Of a DNA stretch of 52,919 bases, positions 6,609 through 39,434 are shown piece after piece (within the stretch, counting starts at the first letter, position 1; every line of letters starts with the position of its first letter). The translations under genes were made by a program, and so were the position numbers. The notes beneath the pieces are model-generated. The model did not search any database, had not been told where the DNA came from, and saw only the letters and a program-made list of their open reading frames with translations. Origin of the DNA: Patescibacteria group bacterium (GTDB taxonomy: Bacteria; Patescibacteriota; Minisyncoccia; Phycocordibacterales; PALSA-1337); the NCBI GenBank assembly GCA_038064415.1, contig JBBTTD010000006.1, positions 1 through 52,919 on the forward strand, given 5' to 3'.

Positions 6609-9116
6609 TCATTTCAACTCCCCCCAATTGTTACCAATAGACGCCAAGGCCTTCATAATCACTCCTTTAGTATCTTTTGTGCTCATGACTGATTCCATAA
6701 TTTTTGTAATCTCAACAGCAACTTTTTCAGTTTTATCTTCTCTTATTTCATAGACCAACTCATCATGAACTTGAAGCAGTGGGAAAACATCGTCCTCTAA
6801 TTTCTCGCGACTGATGTACTCGTCAATACGAACCATTGCGAGCTTGATAATATCAGCTCCAGTGCCTTGAATCGGAGAATTTATAGCCATTCGTTCAGCT
6901 GAAGCGCGAATGTATGGAATCTTTGATTTAATTCCTTCAAAATAACGGCGACGCCCAAAGAATGTCTCTGTAAACCCCCGACGGGTCGTTTCTACCTTCA
7001 CTGAATTTAAATATTGCGCCAAAGTGGAAAATGTAGAAAAATAATCGTTATAAAACTTCTGCGCTTCGGCTCGATTGGTTCCGATACTTTGTTGTAACGC
7101 ATTGACTCCCATGCCATAAATAATTCCGAAATTAATAGCTTTGGCGTTGCGGCGCATTTCGGCAGTAACTTTATCTATTGGTACTTTAAACACAAAAGAC
7201 GCCACAGAAGAATGAACATCTTCGCCTTTTTGGAAAATTTCAATCATTTTTTTATCACCAGATATGAACGCGGCGATCCGGAGTTCCACTTGGGAATAAT
7301 CAAAACTACATAATCTGAATCCTTTATCGGCAATAAATGCTCCACGAATAGCACGGCCAAGTTCGGTTTTTATTGGAATGTTTTGTAGATTTGGGTTTTG
7401 TGAAGCCATTCGTCCGGTTGTTGAACCAGAAGAAATCAAATTTGAATGTAATCGATCATTGATATCAAGAAGTGGTGGAATCGCGTCAATATAAGTTGAA
7501 AGTAATTTTGCCAATTCCCGATATTCAAATATCATCGGAACTATCGGGTGCAAGTCACGCAGTTTTTCCAGCTCTGATTCCCTAGTTGAGCGTGCGCCAC
7601 CAGCGGTTTTCTTCATATTCTTGACCGTAAGATTCATTTTATCAAAAAGAATTTCACCAAGTTGCTTTGGTGAATTTATATTAAATTCTACGCCGGCATG
7701 TTTCCAGATTTCCTTTTCCAAACGAGTTAATTCAGTATGGTATGTCTTTGATAGTTTTGAGAGTAATTCCTTATCAATTTTAATTCCATGTTTTTCCATT
7801 TTTTCTATTATTGGAATAAGCGGCAACTCAATGTCTTCATAGACTTTTCTGAGTCCTCTTTTATCAAGTTCAGTAAATATTACTCTTTTTGCTTCTTCAA
7901 ATTTATCTGTATTGGCGAAATTGAGGATATCTTCCAGTGTTGGATTAGTTAAATTTGAATTTACAAGCCATAATGCAAGAGCGGTTTTTTGAGATTCATC
8001 CGCAAGGTCGTCTTTTCTCAACATCGCCTGACTCGGTAAACTTAATAGTTGATTTCGCGACATCTGCGAAGAGAGTTCAGTATCATTGTTCCTTTCGCTA
8101 TTGGACATGGGTATATTATTTCCAACCACTTTCTGCAACCTCTGAACTAAAGTTCTAAATTCCAATTCACTCCAAAGTTGGGAAATTTTTTTAATATCTA
8201 GATTTTCCCTGAAAGTTTTCTCCGGTAAGACGAATGTTATCGGCGCGTCTCTGCGTATTGTCGCCAACATTTTACTGAATTCCGCTTCTTCTTTGTTATC
8301 TTTTAATAATTGGATAATTCTGGGGGTGATCCCAGTTTTTTTGAACTTTTCTTCATTCCCCGCCTCCAATTCTTCATATATTTTTTCAATGGATCCAAAG
8401 TTTGTGATCAAAGTCGTGGCGGTTTTTTCACCGACGCCTTTTATGCCGACAATATTGTCAGACGGATCGCCACGCAATCCCTTATAATCAGCCATAAGCT
8501 CTGGTCCAAAACCAAAACGATCGTAAACTGCTTTTTCATTATAGATAATTGTGTCTTTGATTCCCTTTTTAAAGGTATAGACCTTAACTTCGTCGCCTTG
8601 GACCAGTTGTAATGTGTCCATATCTCCCGAAGCGATGATTATTTCCGTATCTTTTTTTGGTTTTGGTTTTTTGGTTTTTAGTTTGTCTAGGATTTCGGGT
8701 TTAGAATTTTGTATTTTTCCCTTTATCTGTTCCACTATCGTCCCCAACATGTCATCCGCCTCAAATCCTTCCTTGTCATATATTGGGATATTCAAAGCAT
8801 GAAAAATATCTCTAGACCTTATCAATTGTTTGATCAGATCGTCTTCAATTTCTTTTCTTTGAGCTTTATATTCTTTGTAAGCTTTGTGGCGATGGGTTGG
8901 ACCTTTGACATCATAGCAAGCAACCACATAGTCAGGTTTTAAGTCCTCAATAATCTTAATTAACATTGAAGAAAGACCATACAAAGCTCCGGTTGGTTCA
9001 CCTTTGGCGGTAGAAAAATCCGGTAAGGCGTGGTAAGCGCGATGGAGAATAGCGTGTGAATCCAAAAGAATAAGTCTCTTTGGTGTAGTATTTTCTTGTT
9101 TTTTCTTTACCGCCAT
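6609..9116 (-). CDS. polA: DNA polymerase I (5'-3' exonuclease plus polymerase; 3'-5' exonuclease vestigial), with two in-frame insertions
   Basis: LDSHAILHRAYHA, EADD, GDMD, GDPSDNI, TGRMASQNPNLQNIP, DYSQVELR, AKAINFGIIYG, QVHDEL. Start 9116 (MAVKK) preferred over 9131. Confidence 0.95.
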   Translation of the reverse strand: MAVKKKQENTTPKRLILLDSHAILHRAYHALPDFSTAKGEPTGALYGLSSMLIKIIEDLKPDYVVACYDVKGPTHRHKAYKEYKAQRKEIEDDLIKQLIRSRDIFHALNIPIYDKEGFEADDMLGTIVEQIKGKIQNSKPEILDKLKTKKPKPKKDTEIIIASGDMDTLQLVQGDEVKVYTFKKGIKDTIIYNEKAVYDRFGFGPELMADYKGLRGDPSDNIVGIKGVGEKTATTLITNFGSIEKIYEELEAGNEEKFKKTGITPRIIQLLKDNKEEAEFSKMLATIRRDAPITFVLPEKTFRENLDIKKISQLWSELEFRTLVQRLQKVVGNNIPMSNSERNNDTELSSQMSRNQLLSLPSQAMLRKDDLADESQKTALALWLVNSNLTNPTLEDILNFANTDKFEEAKRVIFTELDKRGLRKVYEDIELPLIPIIEKMEKHGIKIDKELLSKLSKTYHTELTRLEKEIWKHAGVEFNINSPKQLGEILFDKMNLTVKNMKKTAGGARSTRESELEKLRDLHPIVPMIFEYRELAKLLSTYIDAIPPLLDINDRLHSNLISSGSTTGRMASQNPNLQNIPIKTELGRAIRGAFIADKGFRLCSFDYSQVELRIAAFISGDKKMIEIFQKGEDVHSSVASFVFKVPIDKVTAEMRRNAKAINFGIIYGMGVNALQQSIGTNRAEAQKFYNDYFSTFSTLAQYLNSVKVETTRRGFTETFFGRRRYFEGIKSKIPYIRASAERMAINSPIQGTGADIIKLAMVRIDEYISREKLEDDVFPLLQVHDELVYEIREDKTEKVAVEITKIMESVMSTKDTKGVIMKALASIGNNWGELK
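8002..8079 (-). repeat. Decayed copy of the CGGAG-core palindromic element, in frame within polA
   Basis: Minus strand TGAACTCTCTTCGCAG-atgtcg-N31-cgatgt-TGAG-AAAAGA-CGACCTTGC matches the cores at 37551-37658 and 39295-39404. Confidence 0.8.
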
Positions 9117-9176
9117 ATAATCATTGTACATTATTTATAAGAAGTTATTCACAACTAAAATAGAAAACGGGCTAAG

Positions 9177-9755
9177 TTATATTTCAGGGTTTAATTGATT
9201 AAAACCAATCACTCGATCGGTTTTTTCACTTGAACTTGTATCTAAAATACTAAAACTTATGTCTTGATGTAAATTTTCTGGTAACAAAACACTTTTAACA
9301 TTTTCCGGCCACTCAATCAAAATTAAATTGTCAGAATCTGAAACCAACTTCTCAAAATTCAGCGCATCCAATTCTTTTCCGCTCTCCAATCGGTAAGCAT
9401 CAATGTGTATCAGTCGTTTCCAGGGTATAACTTTAGCTTGTTCTGACAATTTTTGTTCTGACTTTCTATTAGTATCTGGTAATTGAACATTGGTTGTTGA
9501 ACATTGATCATTTTTCCCAATTTCATAAATCTTCATGATTACAAAAGTTGGACTGGTTATTATTTCAGTGATTCCGAGTAATTTTCCAATTATTTGCGTA
9601 AAAGTGGTTTTACCTGAACCGAGATGTCCAGAAAGTCCAACAACCATGGCTTCATCACGCGCGAATCTACCCTGTGCGTCTCGCACAAGATCACCAAGCC
9701 AATTTTTAGCAATCTTTTCTGTTTCTTCCAGAGAATGAGAAGGGTATTCTTTCAT
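9177..9755 (-). CDS. tsaE: tRNA threonylcarbamoyladenosine biosynthesis ATPase TsaE, with insertions
   Basis: LSGHLGSGKTTF, TSPTFVIM, HIDAYRL, LIEW motifs; start 9755. Confidence 0.92.
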   Translation of the reverse strand: MKEYPSHSLEETEKIAKNWLGDLVRDAQGRFARDEAMVVGLSGHLGSGKTTFTQIIGKLLGITEIITSPTFVIMKIYEIGKNDQCSTTNVQLPDTNRKSEQKLSEQAKVIPWKRLIHIDAYRLESGKELDALNFEKLVSDSDNLILIEWPENVKSVLLPENLHQDISFSILDTSSSEKTDRVIGFNQLNPEI

Positions 9756-9864
9756 CTGAACAATATAACATAACATTCCATGACAAGGCCTACCCTAGCC
9801 ACTAACCAGATTAAAAAGACCGCAACCCCTCAAGGAGGTTGCGATCGTGAATTGGTCCGGTCCA

Positions 9865-10506
9865 TCAGCGTCTGTGGCCAACGAGTGGGCCTTGTTGGTA
9901 GGGATACAGCCCACCTGGCGGAACATGGTTCTGAATGAGTCGCGAGCCATGACCACCACGTCCGCCATCATACTCTCCACCACTATATCTGTGGCCACCA
10001 CCATACAGCATTTGGGTATTACGGTAGTTGTACCGTTCACCGGCCGAATAATTGTAATCCCAATATGTCGGATAGTATCCTCCGTCATATGAATTGACCT
10101 CAATTGAAGCGTAGGCAGAGGCGCCACCCCATCCAATCATTCGTTTGAAAAAGCCACGCTTCTTCTTTTCCACGAAGACCACTTTCACCACTTGTTGCGT
10201 CACAACAATTACTGATGGTTGCGACACTGGTTGGGTCTGTGATTGTTGCCAATTACTGTTCGGGTCGCGGATCGTGCCCGACTCGGGCCCCGAATTCACA
10301 CTGCTTGGGGCAATCTTGATCTGGGTTGTTTGAACCTGATCAGATCCGGAACGAACCAGAGACGGATCAGAAGCGGGAATGACATCCCCACTCTTGGTCC
10401 TAATTGTGATCCCCGAACCATCTCCCGCTGAAGCTGGAGTGGCTGACGCAATCGTAATCATGACCAAAACCAAAACGACACTGAAACCGAAAAATGCATT
10501 TTTCAT
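9865..10506 (-). CDS. Hypothetical secreted protein with Gln/Ser/Pro-rich middle and Gly/Tyr-rich C-terminus
   Basis: Signal-peptide-like MKNAFFGFSVVLVLVMITIASA...A; dedicated promoter at 10559-10588. Start could also be 10539. Confidence 0.6.
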   Translation of the reverse strand: MKNAFFGFSVVLVLVMITIASATPASAGDGSGITIRTKSGDVIPASDPSLVRSGSDQVQTTQIKIAPSSVNSGPESGTIRDPNSNWQQSQTQPVSQPSVIVVTQQVVKVVFVEKKKRGFFKRMIGWGGASAYASIEVNSYDGGYYPTYWDYNYSAGERYNYRNTQMLYGGGHRYSGGEYDGGRGGHGSRLIQNHVPPGGLYPYQQGPLVGHRR

Positions 10507-10558
10507 GTGCAAAACCTTTCTTTTTTGTTCAGGATTCATTCCTAAACATTCTTGTACC

Positions 10559-10588
10559 ATTGTACCACAATCAGTACCATAAAGTCAA
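10559..10588 (-). promoter_or_regulatory. Sigma70 promoter TTGACT-18-(TGg)TACAAT
   Basis: Read directly on the minus strand upstream of the 9865-10506 ORF. Confidence 0.6.
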
Positions 10589-10640
10589 TAGCTATAAAAG
10601 GCCTCAAATTTGAACATTTGGGGTATAATAATAACCAAAT

Positions 10641-12311
10641 ATGATTCAATTTGACGAAGATAAACAAAACCGAAAACTTAACGAACTTCTCCATAAAGAA
10701 GAGGAGGACCTTGTCCAACTACTTTCTGGTAAATATAATCTGGAATATGTAAACCTTTTGATCACCCCAATAAATACCGACGCCCTTAGATTAATTCCAG
10801 AGGATACCGCCAGGTCTACTCAAGTCGCGGCTTATGCTTTGATAAATAAAAAAGTAAAAGTCGCTTCACGAAATCCACAAGATGAAAAAATAAATGGCGT
10901 TTTGGAAGATCTAAAAACAAAAGGATACCAACCGGAAATCCATATCACTTCAACGCAAGGACTTGAAAAGGCTTGGAAAATGTACAAAGATCTTTCATTT
11001 GCATATGAAAGTAAAGCAGGATCTTTAGAAATTTCTAGTGAAGAAATCCAAGCAATAATTGAGCAGGCAAAAAGTCTTCCAACTATTGTCTCTATTTTGG
11101 AAAACACAACTAAAGCCAAGAAAAGTTACCGTGTATCTAGAATTCTAGAAACGATTGTGGCCGGAGCGTTGGCGGTTGACGCTTCAGATATTCATCTTGA
11201 ACCAGAAGAAAGTTATGTCCAGCTTCGTTATCGTTTGGACGGCGTGCTTCAGGAAGTTACTCACTTTGACAACGAAACTTATGGTCTGATTCTATCCCGA
11301 GTCAAGCTCATTTCGGGAATGAAATTAAATATCAAAAAAGACTCACAGGATGGTCGCTTCAGCATCCGCCTTCCTATTGGAGACATTGAAGTGCGTGCCT
11401 CTATTTTGCCTGGGGCCTACAACGAATCAGTAGTCTTGCGTCTTCTCAATCCAAAATCAATTGATGTGCCGTTGGAATCTCTTGGAATTCATGAGAAATT
11501 ACTTAAAATTCTTCTCAAGGAAATAGATCGTCCAGACGGAATGGTCCTGACGACTGGTCCTACTGGTTCTGGAAAAACCACGACTCTCTATTCTTTTTTG
11601 AAAAAAATTCACAACCCAAAAGTGAAGATTGTGACAATTGAGGATCCAATTGAATATCATCTGCCTGGAATAGTCCAGACACAAGTCAACGATAAGGGTT
11701 ATACTTTCGTTGAGGGTTTGCGTGCGGCGGTGCGACAAGATCCTGATATCATTATGATTGGTGAAATTCGTGACAACGAGACGGCTGATATCGCCATCAA
11801 TTCCGCCTTAACTGGTCACTTAGTGTTCTCTACTCTACACACCAATGACGCGGCTGGAACATATCCCCGTTTGATTGATTTGGGAGTTAATCAAAAAGTT
11901 TTAACTTCGGCCATCCGCGTCGCTATGGCGCAAAGGTTAGTCCGCAAGCTTTGCGAGTTTTGTAAGAAAGAAGTCGTGGTTGAGGGAAACTACCGAAAAG
12001 AAATTGAGGATACTGTTGCTGGAATTGAAGACAAGTCACTGGTTCCAACAGAACGAACAAAAATGTGGACGGCTGTTGGTTGTGAGAAATGCAACAAAAC
12101 TGGCTTCAAGGGTCGCATCGGAATTTACGAGGCAATTTTGTCTGATGAAAAAATTGAAAACGCCGTGGAAATTAACCCAAGTGAGCGTGAAATATGGGCG
12201 GCCGCCAAGGGTCAAGGTATTTTGACCATGAAACAAGATGGGGTCTTGAAAGTTTTGAAAGGGATCACTTCGGTTGAAGAGTTGGAGAGAGTTATTACGA
12301 TTAGTGATTAG
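10641..12311 (+). CDS. pilB: GspE/PilB family type IV pilus assembly ATPase
   Basis: ASDIHLEP, GPTGSGKTTT, TIEDPIE, RQDPD, TGHLVFSTLH, CEFC/CEKC Zn motif, GRIGIYE. Confidence 0.9.
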   Translation: MIQFDEDKQNRKLNELLHKEEEDLVQLLSGKYNLEYVNLLITPINTDALRLIPEDTARSTQVAAYALINKKVKVASRNPQDEKINGVLEDLKTKGYQPEIHITSTQGLEKAWKMYKDLSFAYESKAGSLEISSEEIQAIIEQAKSLPTIVSILENTTKAKKSYRVSRILETIVAGALAVDASDIHLEPEESYVQLRYRLDGVLQEVTHFDNETYGLILSRVKLISGMKLNIKKDSQDGRFSIRLPIGDIEVRASILPGAYNESVVLRLLNPKSIDVPLESLGIHEKLLKILLKEIDRPDGMVLTTGPTGSGKTTTLYSFLKKIHNPKVKIVTIEDPIEYHLPGIVQTQVNDKGYTFVEGLRAAVRQDPDIIMIGEIRDNETADIAINSALTGHLVFSTLHTNDAAGTYPRLIDLGVNQKVLTSAIRVAMAQRLVRKLCEFCKKEVVVEGNYRKEIEDTVAGIEDKSLVPTERTKMWTAVGCEKCNKTGFKGRIGIYEAILSDEKIENAVEINPSEREIWAAAKGQGILTMKQDGVLKVLKGITSVEELERVITISD

Positions 12312-12356
12312 ATAAATAAATTATTGATATAACCATAAATATATTTAAATATTATC

Positions 12357-12680: not shown

Positions 12681-12768
12681 AGGGAGGGTTGGGACTTTAT
12701 ATACTAAAAACTATTTTGTCACACGTTGTCAATTGCTTTTTTTCTGGGGATAGCGCTAGGATGTCCAG

Positions 12769-12985
12769 TAGAAGAAAGCTTGAATAATTTTCAAGCGCGA
12801 GAATCTCTAAGCAATATCTTGTTGCGTGATGCATCAAGCGAGGTAGAGTCCCGAGGATAATTTCAGTACGCAAAACCGAAGTATTGCAACCAAAATGTCC
12901 TTAGCACTATACCCAAACCTGGGAAGGCCATTGCTTAGAGGTTCGCGAACTTGAATAACTAAAAATACGAATCGTCCGATTCGCA
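12769..12985 (+). ncRNA. Candidate structured RNA (rod-like, 6S-sized) or long structured leader upstream of ruvB
   Basis: Promoter-like TTGCTT-18-TAGGAT (12733-12762); 11-bp perfect stem 12805-12815/12930-12940 with extensions; inner stem; 3' bubble hairpin. Confidence 0.4.
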
Positions 12986-13057
12986 TTCATGTTATTGTGT
13001 TGGTACACTATACTACACTTATTAGATTCAATTGAATCCTAGCATAACCTTATAAAA

Positions 13058-14077: not shown

Positions 14078-14085
14078 ACAATCCG

Positions 14086-14616: not shown

Positions 14617-14623
14617 TTAATAT

Positions 14624-15097
14624 ATGAAAATTCTCGGCATTGACCCGGGCTACGATCGGCTTGGAGTCGCTGTAATAGAAAAGCTAGAAAAAGGCAAAGA
14701 AAAACTGCTTTATTCTGGGTGTTTACAAACTTCCGCGAAAGAAAATATTTACAAGCGATTTGAAAAAGTTGGATTGGAAATTTCAAAGGTAATAGAAAAA
14801 TACAAACCAGGCGCCCTAGCAATAGAAACGCTTTTTATGACAAAAAACCAAAAAACTGCCATGCGCGTATCGGAAGCTAGAGGAATTATTATCTATGAGG
14901 CTATCAAATCTAAAATTCCTGTATTTGAATACAGCCCGATGCAAATTAAAACCGCCATAACTGGCGATGGAAATAGCGATAAAATTAGAATAATAAAAAT
15001 GGTTAAAATATTAGTTGATATTCCAAAAAAAATATCAAAAGACGATGAATATGACGCGATAGCGGTGGCTTTAACTCATGGTGCTTATATACGGTAG
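14624..15097 (+). CDS. ruvC: Crossover junction endodeoxyribonuclease RuvC
   Basis: ILGIDPG, AIETLF, EARG, Y.P.QIK.AITG.G, DD..DA.A.A. Confidence 0.95.
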   Translation: MKILGIDPGYDRLGVAVIEKLEKGKEKLLYSGCLQTSAKENIYKRFEKVGLEISKVIEKYKPGALAIETLFMTKNQKTAMRVSEARGIIIYEAIKSKIPVFEYSPMQIKTAITGDGNSDKIRIIKMVKILVDIPKKISKDDEYDAIAVALTHGAYIR

Positions 15098-15167: not shown

Positions 15168-15298
15168 CATATCCCCGCACTACATAATACTTCTTTGAAG
15201 CATTGCCGGAGGCCTAAACAGATATTCATCATTCTTTAGCCATTGATTTTAGACAACAGGCGTCGCTTCAAAGAAGTATTATGTAGTGCGGGGATATG
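15168..15298 (+). repeat. Palindromic element A: perfect 34-bp inverted arms around a CGGAG...CGT core
   Basis: 15168-15201 is the exact reverse complement of 15265-15298; CGGAG at 15207, CGT at 15261. Confidence 0.9.
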
Positions 15299-19825: not shown

Positions 19826-21172
19826 TTACAGCATCGTTCTAACTTGAGTTATCTCTTGTAATAACAACTGATCGGTTTTTATCTCCTCACGAACCTTCTC
19901 ATAAGAATGGATCACGGTCGTGTGGTCTCTGCCGCCCAGTTTCTCACCAATAGACGGAAAAGAAATACTAAAATCCTCACGAAGAATATACATTACCACC
20001 TGTCTGGGCCTCACAACCTCTTTTTTGCGAGTTTTGTTGTATATACTATCCTCGCTAACACTATAGAATTCAGAAACAATTCTAACAACATCTTTAACAG
20101 AAATCATTTTCTTCGGTTTTACATTGTTTTTTAGGATGCCCCTCACTTCATTTAAGCTTAGCTCCCTGTTTTTCAGTTGGGTTTGGCAAGCAATGACATT
20201 AACTATACCCTCTATTTCACGGATATTATCTTCTATTGATGAGGCAATATGTTCAACAACCTCGCTGGAGAGGGTGATGTTATGTGTTCCACACTTGCTT
20301 CTTACTATCATTGCGCGTGATTCTTGGTCTGGCTCTGGTATATCAACAATCATCCCCATACCAAACCTCCCCTTTAGACGGTCTTCTAGGCCAGGGATTG
20401 CGTTTGGGTGTTTATCCCCAGAAAACACCAACTGTCTAGATGTGTCGTAAAAAGTGTTAAAAAAATGGAACAATTCTTCCTGGAACTTTTCTTTACTAGC
20501 AAAAAACTGGACATCATCCATTATGATTACATCATATTTTCTATATTTGTCTTTAAATAATTGAACCTTACCCTCTTGGATGGCAGAAAACAATTCCGAT
20601 CCAAACCTCTCCGATGTTAAATAGAAAACTTTTTTGTTTGGATGAAGCTTTTTTATTTGATTTCCTACCGCCTGAATAATGTGTGTTTTTCCACGACCAG
20701 TTTGTCCATAAATGAAAAGCGGGTTGTATGCTTGTCCAGGACTCTTCACCACCATTTGTGACGCGGCGTTAGCAAGCTCGTTGAATGGCCCGACAACCAA
20801 GTTTTCAAAAGTATATCTCGGATTTAGGTTGTCGTCTTTATTTATATAAAAATCTTGAAGTGGCATGGCAATTGTTGGAGCCTGAATTTGGCTTCTCCTC
20901 ATACCCACCACATCCTCAACGCTGTCTTTTAGTATTACATATTCAAGCGCCCTAACCCCCTCATTCATCTGTCTCAAAATACGAAGAATTGAGTTATGAA
21001 ACTTCTTTTGAAGCCACTCATGGGTGAATGAATTTGGTACTCCAAGATATATGACACCATCGTCTTCACGGAGAATACGGATGTCTTTGAACCAAGTTGA
21101 AAAGTTTGCTTGCGATACGGCCGTTTCTATCTCTATTAGGGCGGTTTGCCACATTTTACTGTAGTCATTCAT
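19826..21172 (-). CDS. dnaA: Chromosomal replication initiator DnaA
   Basis: NPRYTFENLVVG, YNPLFIYGQTGRGKTH, DDVQF, RELEG-like REIEG, RDHTTVIH. Confidence 0.98.
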   Translation of the reverse strand: MNDYSKMWQTALIEIETAVSQANFSTWFKDIRILREDDGVIYLGVPNSFTHEWLQKKFHNSILRILRQMNEGVRALEYVILKDSVEDVVGMRRSQIQAPTIAMPLQDFYINKDDNLNPRYTFENLVVGPFNELANAASQMVVKSPGQAYNPLFIYGQTGRGKTHIIQAVGNQIKKLHPNKKVFYLTSERFGSELFSAIQEGKVQLFKDKYRKYDVIIMDDVQFFASKEKFQEELFHFFNTFYDTSRQLVFSGDKHPNAIPGLEDRLKGRFGMGMIVDIPEPDQESRAMIVRSKCGTHNITLSSEVVEHIASSIEDNIREIEGIVNVIACQTQLKNRELSLNEVRGILKNNVKPKKMISVKDVVRIVSEFYSVSEDSIYNKTRKKEVVRPRQVVMYILREDFSISFPSIGEKLGGRDHTTVIHSYEKVREEIKTDQLLLQEITQVRTML

Positions 21173-21258: not shown

Positions 21259-21418
21259 TAAATAAAGTGATAAAGAGTTTGGTGAATATATATTTTATAC
21301 AAATTGCGTTATGTCCCCAACAAAACCTAGACGATGGGGCAACATAATTTGTATAAAATATATATTCACCAAACTCTAAAACTTGATTTATTAAAATATT
21401 TAAGCTATTGTTTGTGTC

Positions 21419-21946: not shown

Positions 21947-22696
21947 ATGTATCACGAATATATATTTCGCCCTCTCTACAATGGCCTCGTTGGTATTATG
22001 GATATTATTCCATGGGTTGATGTTGGTGTTGCTGTCGTTATTTTTACCATTATTGTCAAACTTATCCTATTTCCCCTATCAAAAGCGTCACTGTTGACCC
22101 AAGTTCGCATGAAGGAAATTGAGCCGGAGGCAAACAAAATTAAAGCCCAATACGCGTCCAATAAACAAACACAGGCCCTGAAAATCATGGAGCTTTACAA
22201 AGAGAAGAGAATCAAACCATTTTCTGGTGTTTTACTTCTTTTTATTCAACTTCCCATCCTTTTCGCTCTTATTTCGGTGTTTTATAAAATTATTCCAACC
22301 ATTGATGTCGCCCAACTTTATAGTTTTATAGCTGTTCCCAACAACCCATCTTTTCATTTTCTTGGACTTATTGATTTGAGTCAAAAAAGTTTTATTCTCT
22401 CACTAGCGACGGCAGTAATTCAATTTTTGCAAATGCATTTTTCACCAGCCATGCGCCAACAAAAACTCGCCAGCAACCAACCCCAAACAAACCCAGCCGA
22501 CTTTGCTTCACAACTATCTGGCTCCATGACAAAACAAATGATGTACTTACTGCCCATACTTGCTTTTGCCTCAACATATTGGATTATTCCAGCAACGTTT
22601 CCTCAGGCGGCGTCAATCATAGCTATTTATTGGTCAGTTAGTACTTTATTTACATTAGTGCAAGAGCTTTATATTAGAAAGAGACACTTAAAGTAA
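21947..22696 (+). CDS. yidC: YidC/Oxa1 membrane protein insertase (short form)
   Basis: FT..VKLIL.PL, LYKE..IKPF.G.L...IQLPI, IYW..S..F...QE motifs. Confidence 0.92.
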   Translation: MYHEYIFRPLYNGLVGIMDIIPWVDVGVAVVIFTIIVKLILFPLSKASLLTQVRMKEIEPEANKIKAQYASNKQTQALKIMELYKEKRIKPFSGVLLLFIQLPILFALISVFYKIIPTIDVAQLYSFIAVPNNPSFHFLGLIDLSQKSFILSLATAVIQFLQMHFSPAMRQQKLASNQPQTNPADFASQLSGSMTKQMMYLLPILAFASTYWIIPATFPQAASIIAIYWSVSTLFTLVQELYIRKRHLK

Positions 22697-22813
22697 CAAG
22701 AAACATGTGTAGTTCGGATACGTTGCGGAGCGCGACGGCGCGAGCATAGGAATTTTTCAGCAGAAAAATATCCGTGTATCCGAACTACACATGTTTCTTG
22801 TTACTTTAAGTGT
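22684..22813 (+). repeat. Palindromic element B: perfect 38-bp inverted arms around a CGGAG/CGAG/CGT core, between convergent genes
   Basis: 22684-22721 is the exact reverse complement of 22776-22813; the left arm includes the yidC stop codon. Confidence 0.9.
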
Positions 22814-26891: not shown

Positions 26892-26942
26892 AAACCAATT
26901 ATAACAGAACCACCACATGTGTACCCGTGTGGTTGAATGATA

Positions 26943-28766
26943 CTATTTACCACTCTCCGCGTGTTCCAAATCTCTTTTTGCTTGTTGTATCTGCATGATT
27001 TGTGCCGGGTTTGTGGTGATGATCTGATCTTCAGTATAAGAACCGACGATTTTGATAGCCACATGTTTCAGACCAACGAAGAATATACCCTCTCCAACAT
27101 CTGATTCCAAGAGCAAATACTTTTCCTCATCTGTTAGATTGAATGTTTTCTGAACATGATCAATAACTGATGGTGATTGCTTCAAAAGTACCTGAATAGA
27201 TGAGTTACTCACGATTGGCATGCCATAAGGCGAATTCAAGAAGTCGTCAACATCTTGAGTGATCGTGGATAATCCGAGAAAATATTTACGACCACGCTTA
27301 GCAAGACTAAAGAGGAATGAAGCGGTGTCTTCTGATTTCATCATCCACCATGCCTCATCTATGACCAACAGGCGTTTTTTGAGGTTTTTGCGGATGGCAT
27401 TCCAAATATAGTGTGTAACTATATACATGGCGACCGGTTTCAGTTCATCTTCCATATCACGCAGTGAAAAGACCACGAATTTTTTGTTTATGTCTACATT
27501 TGAGGGTCTATTTATAAATCCAGCCCAAGTTCCTTTTGTATATTTTGATAATCGTTGAACTAATGAATCTCCGCCTTCCATTCCAGCTAGCACCAATTCA
27601 AAATCTGATAGAAGTGGCGGTTCTACTGTACGAAAATCTGCTTCAGGGGTAATATCCTTCAACGCATAAGTTTCACTAATGGCGCGATCAATTATTGCAT
27701 CTTCTTCTTGAGTCAAACCACCCAACATAATACGAAATAGTCCGACCAAATTGATAATATTTGAGCGCAAAACATCAGCCGAAGACTCATCCTCACGAGT
27801 TACTGGTAAGTCAAAAGGATTGATATGGTGTTCTGAATTGAGTGAGATATTGAAATATTTTCCACCCGTGGCCTCGGCCATATACTCATATTCCTTTTCT
27901 GGGTCTATGACAATAACATCAGTTTCAAACATCAAAGTACGCAGTATTTCCAATTTGGTGTTATAAGATTTTCCAGCACCAGCTGTGGCAAAAGTAACTG
28001 AATTGTAGTTTTCCAACGAGAAACGATCAAAAAGCACCAACGAAGAATTGTGTCTATTGATACCATACAAAATTCCCTTGTCAGAAGTAAGGTCAAATGA
28101 GACGAATGGAAACAGAGATGAAAGGGGTGAGGAATTTAACTTAGAATGGACTGCCAATTGGTCATCTGCGATAGGAATGACTGATTTGAACCCTTGTTCC
28201 TGTTGGAAAAGTGCTGGTTTTACATAAATAAGTTTTGATTCAAGAATTGATTTTATTTCGGACTCCAATTTGTCCAATTCTCCTTCTGTGTCTGCAAACA
28301 AAGTGATATAAACGCCAACATCAAACAAGTGCTCTTGGGCTTGCATGAGCTGATCTCGCAGTTGTTCCAGATCTTGGTAAGCGGTATCAAGGGCGGGATC
28401 ACGAACCAATCCCTTGTCTTCCCTTCTGGATATCTGACTTTGAACTTCAGCGACCTTCTTTTGGAAATGACGGAGAATTTTGGCGGTATCTACAGGGTGG
28501 ATGAATATTGAAATATTAAAAATCTTATCCAGATTGATTATCGGAGCAAACCAGCTTTCATCCAAAAACCTAGGATATGAAATAACAAACATCGTGCGGC
28601 CAACTTTCTCACCAAGGTTCAATTCTTTTGGACTAATTTTCAAAGCTGACGGCGAAATAACATCTCTCAACTCCAAAACCCCGGCCTGGTATATTTCTTC
28701 AGGTAAGATTGAAACAATCGGTGATTGCTCGTTTTTATTTCCAAATAATTTGTTTAAAAATGACAT
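26943..28766 (-). CDS. VirB4/TraC-like conjugation-type ATPase
   Basis: Walker A ATAGAGKS, IDPEKEY, INPFD, Walker B VIDEAW, KRGRKY, TQDVDD, GEG motifs. Confidence 0.9.
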   Translation of the reverse strand: MSFLNKLFGNKNEQSPIVSILPEEIYQAGVLELRDVISPSALKISPKELNLGEKVGRTMFVISYPRFLDESWFAPIINLDKIFNISIFIHPVDTAKILRHFQKKVAEVQSQISRREDKGLVRDPALDTAYQDLEQLRDQLMQAQEHLFDVGVYITLFADTEGELDKLESEIKSILESKLIYVKPALFQQEQGFKSVIPIADDQLAVHSKLNSSPLSSLFPFVSFDLTSDKGILYGINRHNSSLVLFDRFSLENYNSVTFATAGAGKSYNTKLEILRTLMFETDVIVIDPEKEYEYMAEATGGKYFNISLNSEHHINPFDLPVTREDESSADVLRSNIINLVGLFRIMLGGLTQEEDAIIDRAISETYALKDITPEADFRTVEPPLLSDFELVLAGMEGGDSLVQRLSKYTKGTWAGFINRPSNVDINKKFVVFSLRDMEDELKPVAMYIVTHYIWNAIRKNLKKRLLVIDEAWWMMKSEDTASFLFSLAKRGRKYFLGLSTITQDVDDFLNSPYGMPIVSNSSIQVLLKQSPSVIDHVQKTFNLTDEEKYLLLESDVGEGIFFVGLKHVAIKIVGSYTEDQIITTNPAQIMQIQQAKRDLEHAESGK

Positions 28767-32403: not shown

Positions 32404-32408
32404 GTTTA

Positions 32409-34109: not shown

Positions 34110-34110
34110 G

Positions 34111-35010: not shown

Positions 35011-35103
35011 GATGCTGGAATTATATCAGAAAACAAGCATTTATTCTTTGTTCTGTGGACAGTAAAAGGCCAGTTAATAAGCCTAAAATGCTATAATTGT
35101 CAC

Positions 35104-36186
35104 ATGCACAAGATTTCTCACTTTTTTCTGATTTTTTCCGTATTGTTTTTTGTTGTTTTTGTACCATTTAGTCACAAGATCGTTTTTGCGTCCAATTTTA
35201 CATTTATTCGTACAATGGGGGTTGGTTCATACGGTCAAGACGTGCGAGAATTGCAGAAAATTCTAAATAGTGATGCGCGGACTCGTGTAGCAGAAAGTGG
35301 TCTAGGGTCTCTTGGCATGGAGACTCTCTATTTTGGTGAGTTAACCAAAAAAGCGGTTATTAGGTTTCAAGAAAAATATCCAGACGAAATATTAAAGCCG
35401 AATGGCTTGTCTGTTGGTACGGGATTTGTTGGAAGATCTACTCTCGCCGTTGTTTCGTGGCTAAAACAAATATATGAGCAACAAGGAAATTTATTAGTTA
35501 CTACTACCACACAACAGATACAACCAATCAAGACCAATAATATTATAACCAATTCAGTTAATTCTGCTACACCCACGTCAACATCAGCTCGAATTTCTTT
35601 GACCCAGACATTGGCACCAATACTAAACACGCCGATAAACCCAAATCAAAAAAACCTTGATGTATTTTTATCTGGAATAGAGAATCTCGCTCAAAAAAGA
35701 GGAATATCAAGCGACAAAATTGCTCGTATGAAAAATCGGATAATAATTGACACGGCAACATCAACCGATTTACAAAAGAAATTTATTGAGACGGTGAATA
35801 GAAGTATCAGTAAGAAAATTCCTAGGCCAATACTTGGTGCGCTGGCTAATTTTTTCGGATCAATTAAATCAACCTTTTCTCCTGAACAAGTAAAGGCGGC
35901 TTCGGGAGTTCCTTTTGGTGGTGCTATCGTATTTACCTATTATTGTAGTTGCAGTCAAAATTGGTTGATTGAGATAACGCCACTACTTCCGTCATTTGTA
36001 ATTTTTCTCTCATATTATGAAGGAACCCAAGCTTTTCTTTCGTATAATATTCCTTTTACAACTTGGCTTTTGGGTGAATATGAGGCGGGCGCCGGAGTAT
36101 GCGTTACTGAACCAGAAGCTGATTGTGGCGTTGAACTTCCTAGTGAAGGAATGATTTCTCCAATGACCGGATCTTCTCCAATCTAA
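35104..36186 (+). CDS. Secreted peptidoglycan-binding domain protein with Cys-rich C-terminal domain
   Basis: Signal peptide; F.R.M..GS.GQDVRELQ.ILN, YFG.LT..AV..FQ, TGFVG..T; C-terminal YCSC...C..C. ATG 35104. Confidence 0.75.
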   Translation: MHKISHFFLIFSVLFFVVFVPFSHKIVFASNFTFIRTMGVGSYGQDVRELQKILNSDARTRVAESGLGSLGMETLYFGELTKKAVIRFQEKYPDEILKPNGLSVGTGFVGRSTLAVVSWLKQIYEQQGNLLVTTTTQQIQPIKTNNIITNSVNSATPTSTSARISLTQTLAPILNTPINPNQKNLDVFLSGIENLAQKRGISSDKIARMKNRIIIDTATSTDLQKKFIETVNRSISKKIPRPILGALANFFGSIKSTFSPEQVKAASGVPFGGAIVFTYYCSCSQNWLIEITPLLPSFVIFLSYYEGTQAFLSYNIPFTTWLLGEYEAGAGVCVTEPEADCGVELPSEGMISPMTGSSPI

Positions 36187-36284
36187 TAATTTTTATTTCC
36201 GGTATCCTTCAGGATATCAACGGCGGACTTCAACCTAAGTGAATTTAATGTTTCTTTAACCCAATTTTTGTTTGTTAATTTGAT

Positions 36285-37118
36285 TCAAATTAATTTCACG
36301 ATTTCTAACCACTGACTAGTTGTGATATTTTCCGCTCTAATTTTCAGATCCAATCCAATCTTTTTCCACGCATCCTCCAATTTTTCTTTCGTTACCACAG
36401 TTTCCAAATTTCTCACAGCAAACTTTCTTTTGTGGGCAAATCCGGCTTTTAAAACCTTAAAAAACGTTGTTATGTCTGGATTTTTGGTCACGAATTGCGC
36501 GTCTGAAATATCACTGATTGAAAGTATTGCCGAATCAACGGTCGGCGGTGGCGTGAATGCTCCAGGTGGGACATTCGCGATAATTTTTGGCGTGCCAAAA
36601 GCTTTTACTGATATTGACAGCACGCTTTCTTTTCCGTTGCGAGCCACGATTCTTTCCGCGACTTCTTTTTGCGCCAAAATAATCATTCTATTTGGTCTAG
36701 GTTCGTGTTCTAAAAATTTCTCTAAAATAGCGCCAGTTATGTAATACGGAATATTTGCGACTATTGAATAGGAGGAGAAAAATTGAGGTCGGATCTCGCG
36801 CGATTTCGTGTTAAGGTCCAATCCCAGTTTTTCTAATATATTTGGATCCAAAATGTCTCCGTAAATAATCTTTAGTTTCCCATCTTTGATTTCATTAAAA
36901 AAATCTTGCTCTACCATGTCAATCGTTCGTCTATCTTTTTCAATCGCCACGACATTTGCGCCGGCAGTTAATAGTGCGCGCGTCAAAACTCCGGTGCCCG
37001 GCCCTATTTCAAGCACATTTTCTCCTTTTTGGATGTTGGCCGCGGAAATTATTTGTTCCAAAACATGTTTAGAATTTAGAAAATGTTGCCCAAGTGATTT
37101 TTTTGGTTGAAGTTTCAT
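36285..37118 (-). CDS. rsmA: 16S rRNA m6,2A dimethyltransferase RsmA/KsgA, with short insertion
   Basis: KKSLGQHFL, EIGPG.G.LT, ANIPYYIT, QKEVAER, F.PPP.VDSA. Confidence 0.96.
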   Translation of the reverse strand: MKLQPKKSLGQHFLNSKHVLEQIISAANIQKGENVLEIGPGTGVLTRALLTAGANVVAIEKDRRTIDMVEQDFFNEIKDGKLKIIYGDILDPNILEKLGLDLNTKSREIRPQFFSSYSIVANIPYYITGAILEKFLEHEPRPNRMIILAQKEVAERIVARNGKESVLSISVKAFGTPKIIANVPPGAFTPPPTVDSAILSISDISDAQFVTKNPDITTFFKVLKAGFAHKRKFAVRNLETVVTKEKLEDAWKKIGLDLKIRAENITTSQWLEIVKLI

Positions 37119-39224
37119 TTAAAAATCAATAAATATCGCTTTCACGCCCGTTGGTTTTTCTGGAATACCCTCATCAAGTAACTTACTGTCTATGTCGGCA
37201 ATAAACTCTGAAGGGGTATTGATTCTTTTAGTTCCATATATTGTGCGAATAAGAGTATGACTCAAATGTACCTTCTTTTTAGCGCGAGTCAATGCTACAT
37301 AAAAAAGACGACGCTCTTCTTCCGCTTCCGATCCACTCGTTTCTTCATCGTCAGAGTGTTTGAACGGAAAAAGTTCCTGTTCCATTCCAGCGATAAAGAC
37401 ATGATCAAACTCCAGTCCTTTTGACGCATGAACTGTCATTAGTTTTACCGCATCCTCGTCTTTTTGTAGGTCATCTTGGTCTGTGGCTAAGGCGGCGTTT
37501 TCCAGGAATTTTTCTATTCCCGAAACGCCCAACTTTACAGATAAGAGTTCTGAACCCTCTTCGGAGCGCCGCTGGATTGCGTATTCATTTACTCCGAATG
37601 GCGGCGCGAGAAAAGACGGCTTTGCGAGCGATTCTGTTGTGCGAGCAAAGCCGATCGTGGGTGAAGAACTCTTATCTGTAAAGTTGGGCGTTTCGGATAT
37701 TGTAAGATCATCATACTGAGTCGCGACGGAAACTAATTCACGAATATTAAGTAGTCGCTCTAAATCTTCTGAATCGCCATCCAAAAGAAGCTTTTCTATT
37801 CCTGTTTCCTGAATAACAAATTTAATTGCTTCTGATGGCTTTTTTTCCATTATTTCATGTTGGATATCATCAAGTAATTTCCAAAAACCATCAATCTTCA
37901 ACCTCATGACTGGCGGGATCAAGTCTGGTCTGGCCGACATTATTTTGGCAATCGTGGCTTTACCTATCCCACGGATCGGAACATTGATTATCCTGCCAAT
38001 ATCACCCCAAGACTCTCTATTTAACGACGCCCTAATGTATGAAAGGACATCCTTAACCTCTTTCCTCTCAAAAAACCTAACTCCAACTAATTGGTAGGGT
38101 ATGTTTTTTTTAATGAATGCCTCTTCAATAACTCGTGATTGAAAATTAGTTCTATACAATACGGCAATATTTCTAGCTGATGTGCCACTTTCAATTAGTG
38201 ATCTGGCAGAATCGGCGATATTTCTAGCCTCATCTAGTTCTGTGTACGCGGCATTCAGGACAATCTTCTCCCCTTGAGCATTATCTGTGTGTAGAGTTTT
38301 CTTTTTTCGCAAATTATTCTTTTCTATGATGCTGTTTGCTGCGGCTAAAATTGTTTTTGTTGAACGATAATTTTTTTCTAAAGCGATCACTGTTGTGTTT
38401 GGGTAATCTTTTTCAAAGTTAAGAATATTTTCGATTGTCGCGCCGCGCCAGCTGTAGATATTCTGGTCAGCGTCGCCGACTACGCAAATATTCCTATGCG
38501 ATTCCGCTAAATATTTTGTTATTTTATATTGCACTCTATTTGTGTCTTGATATTCATCAACATGAATGTATTTCCAGATTGATTGGTAGCGTTTGCGAAC
38601 CGTTTCATTTTTCTCCAAAATATTCATGGTCTTTAAGAGCAGGTCGTCAAAATCCAAAGCTTTTTCTTTGGCTAAAATCGCGTCGTATTTTCTCCAGACA
38701 CTGGCGATTATTCCTTGGATATGATTTTTTGCCTCATCTGAATATTCTGAATGTCCGATCGCATTCCCCTTTGCGCGCGAAATCAAATTGAGGATCATTC
38801 CTGGTTCGTATTGTTCCGTGTTTATTGAAAGTTCCTCCATGGCTTGTTTTATTGCTTTTTTAGAATCTGATCGGTCAAAAATTGTGAAATGTCTGGTTAG
38901 TCCGACCAATTGAGTATTTTCTTTGATGATATGTACTCCAAGCGCGTGAAATGTGCTTAAAAACGGCCGTTCACTGATTGAAATAGGAATATTCAAGCTT
39001 TCATCCTCGGATATTAATGTTTCTACCCGTTCACGCATCTCTTTTGCCGCCTTATTTGTGAAAGTTATTGCCAAAATTTCATGTGGAGCCACGCCCTTTT
39101 TAATTAGATTGATGATTCTATGAGTTATTACCCTAGTTTTACCAGTTCCCGCTCCAGCGATAATAAGAAGTGGACCTTCAGTGGTTTCCACTGCGCGTTG
39201 TTGGGCTTCATTGAGGGTTGTCAT
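37119..39224 (-). CDS. pcrA: UvrD/PcrA ATP-dependent DNA helicase with a 59-codon element insertion
   Basis: AGAGTGKT, FTNKAA.EM, VDEYQDTN, VGDADQ.IY.WRGA, NYRS, MT.HASKGLEF, EERRLFYVA.TRA. Start 39224. Confidence 0.96.
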   Translation of the reverse strand: MTTLNEAQQRAVETTEGPLLIIAGAGTGKTRVITHRIINLIKKGVAPHEILAITFTNKAAKEMRERVETLISEDESLNIPISISERPFLSTFHALGVHIIKENTQLVGLTRHFTIFDRSDSKKAIKQAMEELSINTEQYEPGMILNLISRAKGNAIGHSEYSDEAKNHIQGIIASVWRKYDAILAKEKALDFDDLLLKTMNILEKNETVRKRYQSIWKYIHVDEYQDTNRVQYKITKYLAESHRNICVVGDADQNIYSWRGATIENILNFEKDYPNTTVIALEKNYRSTKTILAAANSIIEKNNLRKKKTLHTDNAQGEKIVLNAAYTELDEARNIADSARSLIESGTSARNIAVLYRTNFQSRVIEEAFIKKNIPYQLVGVRFFERKEVKDVLSYIRASLNRESWGDIGRIINVPIRGIGKATIAKIMSARPDLIPPVMRLKIDGFWKLLDDIQHEIMEKKPSEAIKFVIQETGIEKLLLDGDSEDLERLLNIRELVSVATQYDDLTISETPNFTDKSSSPTIGFARTTESLAKPSFLAPPFGVNEYAIQRRSEEGSELLSVKLGVSGIEKFLENAALATDQDDLQKDEDAVKLMTVHASKGLEFDHVFIAGMEQELFPFKHSDDEETSGSEAEEERRLFYVALTRAKKKVHLSHTLIRTIYGTKRINTPSEFIADIDSKLLDEGIPEKPTGVKAIFIDF
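37520..37696 (+). mobile_element. Palindromic element C (177 bp, perfect 32-bp arms) inserted in frame in pcrA
   Basis: 37520-37551 is the exact reverse complement of 37665-37696; 177 is divisible by 3; core matches element D. Mobility is inferred. Confidence 0.85.
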
Positions 39225-39271
39225 GCGGGTTAGTTTAACACATTGAAATGAATCGTTTTTGATTATGGTTA

Positions 39272-39434
39272 GGTGGGGTGGAGACAATTCCCCTTGAACC
39301 CTCTTCGGAGGCGTCGGGTAACTATAGTTTAACTATAAGATGTACACGATGCCGAGAAAAGAAAACTCTGCGAGCTTTTCTGTAATGCGAGCAGAGTTTA
39401 TCGTGGGTTCAGGGGGAATTGTCTCCACCCCACC
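39272..39434 (+). repeat. Palindromic element D (30-bp arms, 29/30) upstream of pcrA
   Basis: 39272-39301 pairs with 39405-39434 with one T-G; core in the same register as C. Confidence 0.9.

Follow-up and report, generated by a model that had tools for sequence, protein, structure and literature searches.

Hairpin repeat elements with a conserved folded core and locus-specific outer arms in Patescibacteria

Background

Rickettsia palindromic elements (RPE-1 to RPE-10) are gene-less, palindromic repeats of about 100–180 bp which are found as translated, in-frame insertions in housekeeping genes, while others are intergenic; no transposase is known for them (PMC10969869). Bacterial MITEs (Correia, ERIC, RUP, BOX) are small, non-coding units with inverted ends, variable presence and occasional in-frame fusions (PMC10969869). 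The hairpin elements described here, detected in a 52,919-nt stretch of DNA of a Patescibacteria group bacterium (the whole stretch is referred to as the window), share with RPEs the residence of a palindromic repeat in frame within protein-coding genes, and with MITEs the inverted ends, the presence or absence among relatives and the small non-coding unit. They differ from RPEs in occurring in another phylum (the likeness is one of organization, and a relationship in sequence is not expected), in a three-way-junction core whose junction strands do not vary and whose mismatches are strand-specific, in the occurrence of copies in both orientations at one site, and in outer arms which are locus-specific and in one case include copied host sequence. 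The likeness to MITEs, which have terminal inverted repeats conserved between copies, is partial: the inner 15–20 nt of the arms are common to the copies, and beyond these the arms continue as perfect, copy-specific repeats to a length of 38–46 nt.

REP and REPIN sequences are short, multi-copy, non-autonomous units built from imperfect palindromes of 20–40 nt with a conserved 5' tetranucleotide; they are largely extragenic, are accompanied by a RAYT (Y1 HUH) gene with REPs on either side, and form strand-specific hairpins that are presumably recognised in folded, single-stranded form. The elements of the window are likewise hairpin-forming, non-autonomous, multi-copy and strand-specific, but the core of the family termed C/D below is a 113-nt three-way junction rather than a short imperfect palindrome, and most of its copies are located inside genes. 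Integron attC sites have conserved R and L boxes at the base of a hairpin with a variable tip and form cassette arrays beside intI, whereas here the tip is conserved, the base varies, and the copies are dispersed. Double-hairpin elements and small palindromic mobile repeats of organelles are tiny, structured, enzyme-less repeats that enter intergenic and coding DNA, but they have other folds and belong to organelle genomes, and locus-specific long arms are not reported for them. Quasipalindrome template switching and fold-back palindrome formation at short inverted repeats have reportedly been described by Ripley, by Lovett and by Butler/Tanaka. Template-switch mutagenesis copies one arm of an imperfect hairpin from the other, and also duplicates flanking sequence in inverted orientation beside the hairpin; it is a mutational process rather than an element family, and we know of no description of it as the usual means by which a mobile repeat gains or keeps its arms. 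A literature search combining Patescibacteria, Parcubacteria or CPR with palindromic, MITE or hairpin elements retrieved no description of such repeats.

Results and discussion

Long-arm hairpins in the window

Five perfect inverted repeats with arms of 22–38 nt are present in the window, compared to longest perfect arms of 11–15 nt, and none of ≥20 nt, in 30 shuffles of the same sequence. Element A (15168..15298, no strand assigned) has perfect 34-nt arms (15168–15201 / 15265–15298) enclosing a 63-nt core, and element B (22684..22813, plus strand) has perfect 38-nt arms (22684–22721 / 22776–22813) around a mini-core of 54 nt. In element C (37520..37696, plus strand), perfect 32-nt arms (37520–37551 / 37665–37696) flank a core of 113 nt (37552–37664). 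Element D (39265..39441, plus strand; core 39296–39410) has 37-nt arms that match at 92%, including a perfect part of 22 nt (39272–39293 / 39413–39434). The fifth hairpin (21274..21377, no strand assigned), with 32 perfect nt per arm (21274–21305 / 21346–21377), had been overlooked in the preliminary description of this DNA. Besides, a truncated copy of the C/D family is located on the minus strand at 8001..8107, in a linker of polA and sense to the gene. The preliminary description had treated A–D and the polA locus as copies of a non-autonomous repeat element with one architecture; the loci are indeed copies of non-autonomous elements and the long-arm hairpins are real, but the cores fall into at least three families (C/D, B and A).

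That the arms represent fold-back artefacts of assembly, as had been considered, or chance similarities is an explanation of negligible probability and, to the extent that contigs can show, already refuted. It is true that the arms of B and C interrupt contigs assembled with short words: contigs from public runs end at arms exceeding their 31-nt word, and one of them turns back on itself at B. Because of these breaks, the contigs cannot establish which way round the cores of B and C lie. However, all flank–arm and arm–core junctions were recovered at genome depth in contigs from four of the eight public runs holding the stretch (two studies), D is spanned by single contigs, dozens of independent assemblies carry orthologous copies, and the shuffled windows yielded no arms of comparable length.

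Core and fold of the C/D family

The core shared by C, D and the polA relic measures 113 nt and on one strand folds into a three-way junction composed of a closing helix (ACCC/GGGU plus tandem G.A), stem 1, and stem 2 with tandem G.A and a UUCYGU loop. The junction strands GAACCCUCUUCGSAG, CGAGAAAAGAC and GAUCGUGGGUGA are invariant. A covariance model built from C/D-type cores assigned 148 bits to C, 115 bits to D and 33.5 bits (E about 1e-6) to B, while plain long hairpins and the opposite strand of B, used as controls, scored ≤15 bits. The register CGGAG–stem 1–CGAG–stem 2–CGT, previously proposed for B, C and D, is present in all three; element A scored 14.9 bits (E 0.07), which is not significant, so that its core is not shown to be common to C/D.

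A pattern scan of reference genomes followed by the covariance model identified 28 copies, all 28 of them in Patescibacteria; three pattern matches outside this group failed the model. Together with orthologous loci the family comprises 38 copies, again all in Patescibacteria, and the core pattern had no match (0) in viral contigs. As the preliminary description had surmised, it is the fold of the core that is conserved, the stems being maintained by compensatory changes: paired cells amount to 95.5% (72.6% in shuffles), both-sided changes occur in 28 of 38 pairs, and the covariation score is 0.62, as compared to about 0.1 when the partners are slid. Mismatches over the modelled pairs favor one strand (G.T 63 vs. 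A.C 12; purine–purine 37 vs. pyrimidine–pyrimidine 15). Inclusion of the full-length arms and omission of two doubtful pairs changed the counts to G.T 51 vs. A.C 14 and purine–purine 35 vs. pyrimidine–pyrimidine 14; among copies antisense to their host gene the bias was 11 vs. 5, which is not significant. A mismatch bias of this kind fits the earlier suggestion that the core may be recognised as folded single-stranded nucleic acid. The junction strands are invariant in 38/38 copies, which span species whose host proteins are just 60–76% identical. Dead selfish copies should lose such conservation, and hence selection of some kind, or continual conversion, must be at work; likewise, the strong conservation and strand specificity of the fold imply that an enzyme devoted to these elements, or a role as RNA, should exist.

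The core might accordingly be a functional structured RNA, or a folded-DNA site bound by a protein, of use to the host or to a conserved ribonucleoprotein, with the arms as processing or stabilising stems and old insertions retained by selection. The invariance of the junction strands in 38 copies from many species would agree with such a role, as would the excess of G.U, the replacement of tandem G.A by Watson-Crick pairs in some copies, a possible UUCG loop, and the compensatory changes that maintain the stems in orthologous copies. No Rfam match speaks for it: at the gathering threshold, Rfam 15 recognised only tRNAs in the window and none of the loci, and permissive scans (E up to 10) of the C/D and B regions gave weak, chance-level matches only. 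A search for RNA runs containing the region retrieved none. Considering also the distribution of the copies described in the following, we rate this explanation as rather unlikely.

Residence in genes and turnover at orthologous sites

The RPE-like mode of insertion that had been proposed is borne out by the C/D family: 27 of its 38 copies lie in frame inside genes, in both orientations. Long open reading frames enclose 19 of the 28 reference-genome copies, with a single reading frame used per orientation. The hosts, identified by Pfam as PIF1-like helicase, PolA, SecA, RecG, UvrB, DnaE, UvrA, ArgRS and RecO, and in the case of UvrD/PcrA from the window gene and its homologues, are proteins which the elements reshape. 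Frequent in-frame palindromic insertions, previously essentially a curiosity of Rickettsia, are met here across a whole reduced-genome bacterial radiation. Of the eleven distinct in-gene sites, eight fall in genes for DNA repair or replication. This enrichment may be a pointer to function, in line with the functional RNA or protein-binding site, or to a targeting rule.

Element C contributes 59 in-frame codons to the UvrD/PcrA helicase gene (37119..39224, minus strand), to which it is antisense; the predicted protein has 701 aa, as compared to 644 aa in insert-free orthologues. The minus-strand copy in the DNA polymerase I gene (6609..9131, minus strand), previously described as decayed, is indeed a relic: besides the left arm, it retains the core only as far as the 5' half of stem 2 (the 5' two-thirds), and the 3' third is deleted. 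It shares about 75% identity with the intact L027 copy at the same polA site, which is also occupied by intact copies in L025 and L031. Element D is intergenic, between uvrD and a divergent LysM/M23 peptidase gene.

At the UvrD site, the closest orthologues contain the element in both orientations, as well as partial deletions of it, and more distant orthologues have a linker of 7 residues. The locus L056, considered as a truly empty UvrD site near L023, proved to be a deletion relic (GAACAACCTGCGGA vs. GAACCCTCTTCGGA). At the D site, L001 and L004 carry the element, L005 and L006 have nothing, and a different element is present in L002, where a 62-residue open reading frame is annotated over this unrelated element. 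The yidC site, at which B resides, can be occupied by B, by a full copy of C/D type (L046, 82 bits), by other hairpins or by plain terminators, or it can be vacant. In P0124, a UvrB orthologue with 89% identity, the core is lost and the arms are retained.

This turnover argues against a conserved functional RNA, given that the same sites in close relatives are empty, deleted, truncated or equipped with unrelated cores. Moreover, copies occur within open reading frames in either orientation, and for half of them transcription from the host promoter would hence yield no sense transcript.

Copies of the same genome in UvrB, UvrA and DnaE have cores that are 90–93% identical and unrelated outer arms, while the cores of same-site copies from different genomes share 58–78% identity; cores track the genome, and arms track the site. 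In a tree of the cores by genome against site, the label changes were 28 vs. 32 and 26 vs. 29, with a resolution too low for a formal test.

Composition and origin of the arms

The preliminary description had stated that the arms are perfect within, and unrelated between, copies. This applies to the copies of the window; across 37 family copies, however, the inner 15–20 nt of the arms follow the consensus ..CTCCGCAAATATGGnTTCT|GAACCC. The outer 10–25 nt are copy-specific, even where the cores are 90–93% identical, and orthologous copies have arms that are homologous but diverged.

It had also been suggested that arms are homogenised or copied from the flanking DNA, one of them possibly being pre-existing host sequence. 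Homogenisation of the C arms relative to orthologous copies is directly supported by the sequence comparison: the C orthologues of L001 and L007 keep an asymmetric arm block, CGAAG vs. CTCCG, and both arms of C are identical there. That the asymmetric CGAAG/CTTCG block arose through avoidance of stop codons was dismissed, as a perfectly complementary version has no in-frame stop (frames read by hand). Flank copying is evident for B. The last four codons and the stop codon of the yidC-like gene (21947..22696, plus strand) lie inside its left arm, the outer 13 nt of which are the native yidC 3' end (HLK-stop), and an exact inverted copy of these 13 nt ends the right arm. Orthologues without B (L042, L044) finish yidC at ...HLK-stop as well; native sequence in one arm and its exact inverted copy in the other indicate copying of the flank. 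Both observations fit template-switch mutagenesis. At C and D, on the other hand, the arms are not copies of host flanks: the ancestral UvrD linker comprises only 7 residues and the empty D-site orthologues lack arm sequence, indicating that both arms came with the element. Flank copying is firm for B (13 nt) only, with weaker hints from L036 (6 nt) and from the UvrB copy.

Insertion of both arms at the C and D sites would also be expected if the whole unit, including its terminal inverted repeats, were moved by a DDE transposase whose gene lies elsewhere in the genome, with arms that look copy-specific only through fast evolution under a pairing constraint, and the family consensus in the inner 15–20 nt and the homologous but diverged arms of orthologous copies are compatible with this. 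We nevertheless deem it unlikely in view of outer arms that are unrelated in copies with cores 90–93% identical, the native host coding sequence in an arm of B, and copy-specific long arms that are common to unrelated core families. Furthermore, and in this the elements also differ from MITEs, neither target-site duplications nor a parent IS were seen: there are no direct repeats around B, C and D, a weak test for in-gene copies with their fuzzy boundaries, and no IS with matching ends is present in the window or beside the intergenic copies.

Elements A and B and other core families

Two short hairpins, joined by CGGAGCGC..GCGCGAG as the junction, form the core of B, which is distantly related to C/D, of miniature size, and representative of a second family. 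Its right arm stops at the stop codon of a convergent gene. Intrinsic terminators have a short GC-rich stem with adjoining U/A tracts at gene ends, and such terminators are present at the yidC site in L044 and L045; the flanks of B, in contrast, have no T or A runs. In the source metagenomes, the summed depth of the B core is 800–2200, as compared to 13–40 for the genome, so the B family is very abundant in the same groundwater community. In viral contigs, the B core pattern had one chance match, located in a GC-rich phage gene and devoid of arms.

Element A is situated between ruvC and a gene coding for a class A penicillin-binding protein (PBP). Its core shows 2.5–8 times the genome depth in the source metagenomes, and A constitutes a small multi-copy family of its own. 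The hairpin at 21274, in the dnaA–rpmH spacer, has 37-nt arms (32 nt perfect) and an AT-poor core of 30 nt; in L048, a different long-arm element is located just upstream of yidC, at a putatively comparable position. A and the 21274 hairpin combine unrelated cores with the same long-arm architecture. BLAST searches of about 0.5 Mb of related loci retrieved no relatives of A, B or the 21274 hairpin, although the read depths identify A and B as multi-copy. At least three more core families with copy-specific perfect arms of 31–46 nt occur in related genomes.

The variety of unrelated cores on such arms raises the question of whether long perfect arms are a general mutational by-product, template switching lengthening and perfecting any hairpin, terminators included, owing to a tolerance of long palindromes in these genomes, and with the cores being whatever is at the tip. 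The series at the yidC site, ranging from a terminator of 12–17 bp and a perfect hairpin of 28 bp to perfect arms of 36–38 bp with different cores, would be consistent with this notion. As it leaves the conserved multi-copy cores, their spread to new sites and the in-frame copies at hairpin-free genes unexplained, it is highly improbable as a full account; template switching can be a component of the explanation preferred here, not a replacement for it.

Proposed mode of propagation

On balance, these repeats are probably, if not securely, selfish non-autonomous hairpin elements of Patescibacteria that resemble RPEs and maintain their arms by hairpin-templated copying. They would behave as selfish DNA whose copies, among related genomes, appear and disappear, invert, replace one another and undergo internal deletion at the same sites, surviving within genes only as translated, in-frame insertions in permissive loops. 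The core would be the unit propagated or converted between copies; the inner 15–20 nt of each arm would belong to the element, and the outer arm to the locus. Self-complementarity would be preserved by copying one arm from the other through hairpin-templated or fold-back DNA synthesis, which may extend into the flank. We infer a single-stranded intermediate on the 'sense' strand, fold-back chemistry and a trans-acting enzyme. The arms would then record hairpin-templated copying, which is known from mutagenesis, but not as part of the life cycle of an element.

More tentatively, the elements might constitute an undescribed class of prokaryotic genetic element in which the mobile, heritable unit is the small folded core (a three-way junction on one strand) rather than defined ends, and in which a putative patescibacterial enzyme copies or converts the core into hairpin sites. 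Fold-back (self-primed) synthesis, with the flank as template, would write the arms anew at every locus. We regard this as an appreciable possibility, though not the probable case; it would explain both the unrelated cores with copy-specific perfect arms and the yidC end in the arm of B. Irrespective of their mode of propagation, the elements inflate protein lengths, break short-word assemblies at every copy, and can mislead annotation.

Neither transposase nor reverse transcriptase nor HUH genes (RAYT included) were found in the 53-kb window or beside the intergenic copies. In agreement with the preliminary description, which had noted the lack of a transposase gene, a Pfam scan of 40 of the larger open reading frames of the window (most of them) revealed as the only candidate a Xer-like tyrosine recombinase (47833–48792). 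Placement of a replication origin by GC skew was abandoned, as the skew follows gene orientation and does not switch near dnaA/rpmH. As an anecdote from four loci, the sense strands of B, C and D (plus strand) and of the polA relic (minus strand) lie on the presumed lagging-strand template.

Inverted repeats in the window

Reading of the sequence and an inverted-repeat scan revealed long self-complementary arms at loci A (15168–15298), B (22684–22813), C (37520–37696) and D (39272–39434), and an extra pair at 21274–21377 that had been missed in the preliminary description. The perfect arms comprise 34 nt (A), 38 nt (B), 32 nt (C), 22 nt (D) and 32 nt (21274 hairpin); perfect arms >15 nt occurred in none of 30 shuffles of the window, confirming that the repeats are real. 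Folding predicted a long stem with a branched tip for either strand. Rfam 15 contained no match at gathering thresholds, and around C/D and B none at E values up to 10 either.

Assembly fold-back, which could mimic such arms, was checked in public sequencing data. All junctions were reproduced at genome depth in contigs of four of eight public runs (two studies) holding the stretch, and single contigs cross D from end to end. Arms exceeding the 31-nt contig word break contigs, and therefore these contigs do not tell in which orientation the cores of B and C lie.

A covarying core defines the C/D family

C and D share a gap-free core of 113 nt, in which GAACCC-UCUUCGGAG is followed by stem 1, CGAGAAAAGA, stem 2 (GCGAGC..UUCUGU..GCGAGC) and AUCGUGGGU. 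Scanning one genome per species for a three-block pattern yielded 31 loci, 28 of which were confirmed by covariance model; all 28 are from Patescibacteria (Paceibacterota/Parcubacteria, Nomurabacteria, Taylorbacteria). Three pattern matches from other phyla failed the model and were rejected. With orthologous loci at the helicase and yidC sites included, 38 C/D copies are available. In the proposed fold, a three-way junction on the sense strand, 95.5% of the cells are paired, compared to 72.6% in shuffles; both sides vary in 28 of 38 pairs, and the covariation score is 0.62, as compared to ~0.1 with the partners slid. The fold, and with it the covarying core noticed earlier, is strongly supported by these data. 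The junction strands are invariant, and the tandem G.A of stem 2 (GCGAGC/GCGAGC) is replaced in other copies by Watson-Crick pairs (GTCGAC/GTCGAC or GGCGG/CCGCC). Mismatches in the modelled pairs are strand-biased, with 63 G.T versus 12 A.C and 37 purine-purine versus 15 pyrimidine-pyrimidine; considering full-length arms and omitting two doubtful pairs, the counts are 51 versus 14 and 35 versus 14, respectively. The bias is significant in intergenic copies and in copies sense to the host gene, and has the same direction, albeit without significance, in antisense copies.

When the window was scanned without filters, using a covariance model built from eight C/D-type cores, C and D scored 148 and 115 bits, B 33.5 bits (E about 1e-6), A a non-significant 14.9 bits, the 21274 hairpin 10 bits, and the opposite strand of B 8.6 bits. 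The score of B indicates that the junction CGGAGCGC..GCGCGAG is common to B and C/D, with both stems shortened in B; a C/D core was not detectable in A by this model. The decayed copy in polA (8001–8107, minus strand) scored poorly, but about 108 nt of it align with ~75% identity to an intact copy that occupies this polA site in L027, a locus of a related genome, and relative to which its 3' third is missing. The proposal that all five loci form one family was thus too broad: C, D and the polA relic belong together, and B shares their junction, but A does not detectably have their core.

Read depth in the source metagenomes also tells the families apart. The B core (22729–22776) reaches a summed depth of 800–2200, compared to 13–40 for the genome, and is found with dozens of differing flanks and in a second copy within the same genome as the window. 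The A core occurs at 2.5–8 times the genome depth, and only one copy of the C core is seen at ≥85% identity. A further C/D-type copy, with a GAAAG versus TTTCAG asymmetry in its arms, resides outside the window on a 5028-nt contig (X6) of the same depth as the window's genome.

Conserved and copied parts of the arms

The outer parts of the arms had been described as unrelated between copies. When all arms are aligned at the core boundary, the inner 15–20 nt of the C/D arms follow a family consensus. Many C/D copies contain an asymmetric block, with CGAAG in the left arm versus CTTCG or CTCCG in the other, corresponding to a GAA/GAA purine internal loop on the sense strand. GCGAAGC-like purine blocks occur on the same strand in both arms of many copies, e.g., at 2267–2290 and 2386–2409 of L014; d(GCGAAGC) is a DNA mini-hairpin of unusual stability. 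In C, L031, L009 and L026, the perfect arms of which are long, the block is the same in both arms. Since L001 and L007, the orthologues of C, retain the asymmetry, the arms of C must have been homogenised after divergence.

The left arm of B starts within yidC. Orthologues of yidC without B share the HLK-stop end (CAC TTG AAA TAA; CAC CTC AAG TAG), indicating that the outer 13 nt of this arm are native, and that the exact reverse complement of these 13 nt, with which the right arm ends, must have been copied; a further 13 bases would match by chance with a probability of ~1.5e-8. At the C and D sites, in contrast, both arms belong to the insert. Of the arm copying proposed previously, homogenisation in C and one case of flank copying in B are shown, but the arms of C and D arrived with the insert: flank copying lengthens arms, and does not build them de novo at each site.

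Related genomes contain at least three more core families with copy-specific perfect arms of 31–46 nt, which makes the arm behaviour generic. Locus L040 contains two copies of a 36-nt core, CAGAACGrTACACTA..., each with its own perfect arms of 36–42 nt (10751–10860 and 14900–15019); where the second of these lies, the window shows no more than a hairpin of 6 bp (about 26935–26962). The third family, with the small core GCTyTTATGATTACyCGrAC..TGCACAACT, is present at 3242–3352 and 9321–9450 of L048 with copy-specific arms of 40–46 nt, the latter copy directly upstream of yidC, a position comparable to that of the 21274 hairpin. The fourth, TGCG..CTnGCTCGTTAAATT ... AATTTATACTCGCT, has arms of 31–35 nt (L002, ~9770–9930; L046, 1680–1875); a 62-residue ORF is called across the L002 element, in the spacer corresponding to that of D.

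Turnover at shared sites and host genes

The D site holds the element in the window, in L001 and in L004; L005 and L006 have no insert, and L002 has a different long-arm element in its place. At the yidC site, the window has B, L046 has a full copy of C/D type, L040 and L042 have other perfect hairpins, L044 and L045 have ordinary terminators, and seven loci are bare. A UvrB orthologue sharing 89% identity with the host protein of L014 still has both arms, but no longer the core. The cores of the UvrB, UvrA and DnaE copies of one genome are 90–93% identical, with unrelated outer arms, whereas same-site cores in other genomes share only 58–78% identity. Cores thus track the genome and arms the site, a pattern compatible with a recent spread of the core within the genome or with gene conversion among copies.

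C and 19 of the 28 reference-genome copies are located within long ORFs, in both orientations, with a single reading frame used per orientation; the encoded peptides are EPSSE..ARKDGFASDSVVRAKPIVGE (sense) and SSPTIGFAR..PSFL..RSEEGSE (antisense). Pfam-confirmed hosts are PIF1-like helicase, PolA, SecA (two sites), RecG, UvrB, DnaE, UvrA, ArgRS and RecO; UvrD/PcrA, the eleventh site, was identified via the window's own gene and its homologues. Eight of these 11 distinct sites (L013–L039 and the window) belong to genes of DNA repair or replication (PolA, DnaE, UvrA, UvrB, UvrD, RecG, RecO, PIF1), only the two SecA sites and ArgRS being outside this class, an excess that looks far above random expectation. 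Distant UvrD orthologues (644 aa) have a 7-residue linker, HLPPEEG, at the site, which in the closest clade holds the element in both orientations or partly deleted; a supposed empty relative turned out to contain a relic.

Possible mode of mobility

When 40 larger ORFs of the window, most of those present, were compared with Pfam, no transposase-type protein was among them, as had been noted before, but only a Xer-like integrase (47833–48792). Elsewhere, intergenic C/D copies are closely flanked by housekeeping genes, and no gene for a candidate enzyme adjoins them. Full-text literature searches turned up no account of such elements from Patescibacteria; features of Rickettsia palindromic elements used for comparison were taken from a review on MITEs (PMC10969869). 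A non-autonomous element recognised by its fold is the best supported reading; the mechanism and the enzyme behind it we can only infer.

Other features of the window

If the origin is located between dnaA (19826–21172) and rpmH, a position which GC skew did not confirm, the sense strand of all four C/D- and B-type copies (8002–8079, 22684–22813, 37520–37696, 39272–39434) would be on the lagging-strand template. The spacer between D and the LysM/M23 peptidase gene (39442–39620) is highly conserved in six genomes (orthologous spacers L001–L006), with the blocks TAAATGGCTCTGTAAAGCCATAT ... GTATTGTCAATG ... ATGTCAA, and probably acts as a common promoter or operator. The spacer preceding ruvB contains a ~170-nt candidate non-coding RNA, the ends of which are paired (12790–12955); it has no Rfam match at E values up to 1 and recurs with 88–92% identity in five further loci from Patescibacteria (L027, L040, L047, L031, L048). 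In the 369-aa Fpg/Nei glycosylase ORF (2994–4103), the N-terminal domain match covers residues 35–192, compared to 117 positions in the profile, suggesting that ~40 residues have been inserted. A gene pair coding for a YafQ/ParE-type toxin and a RelB antitoxin (5039–5616) adjoins a tRNA gene.
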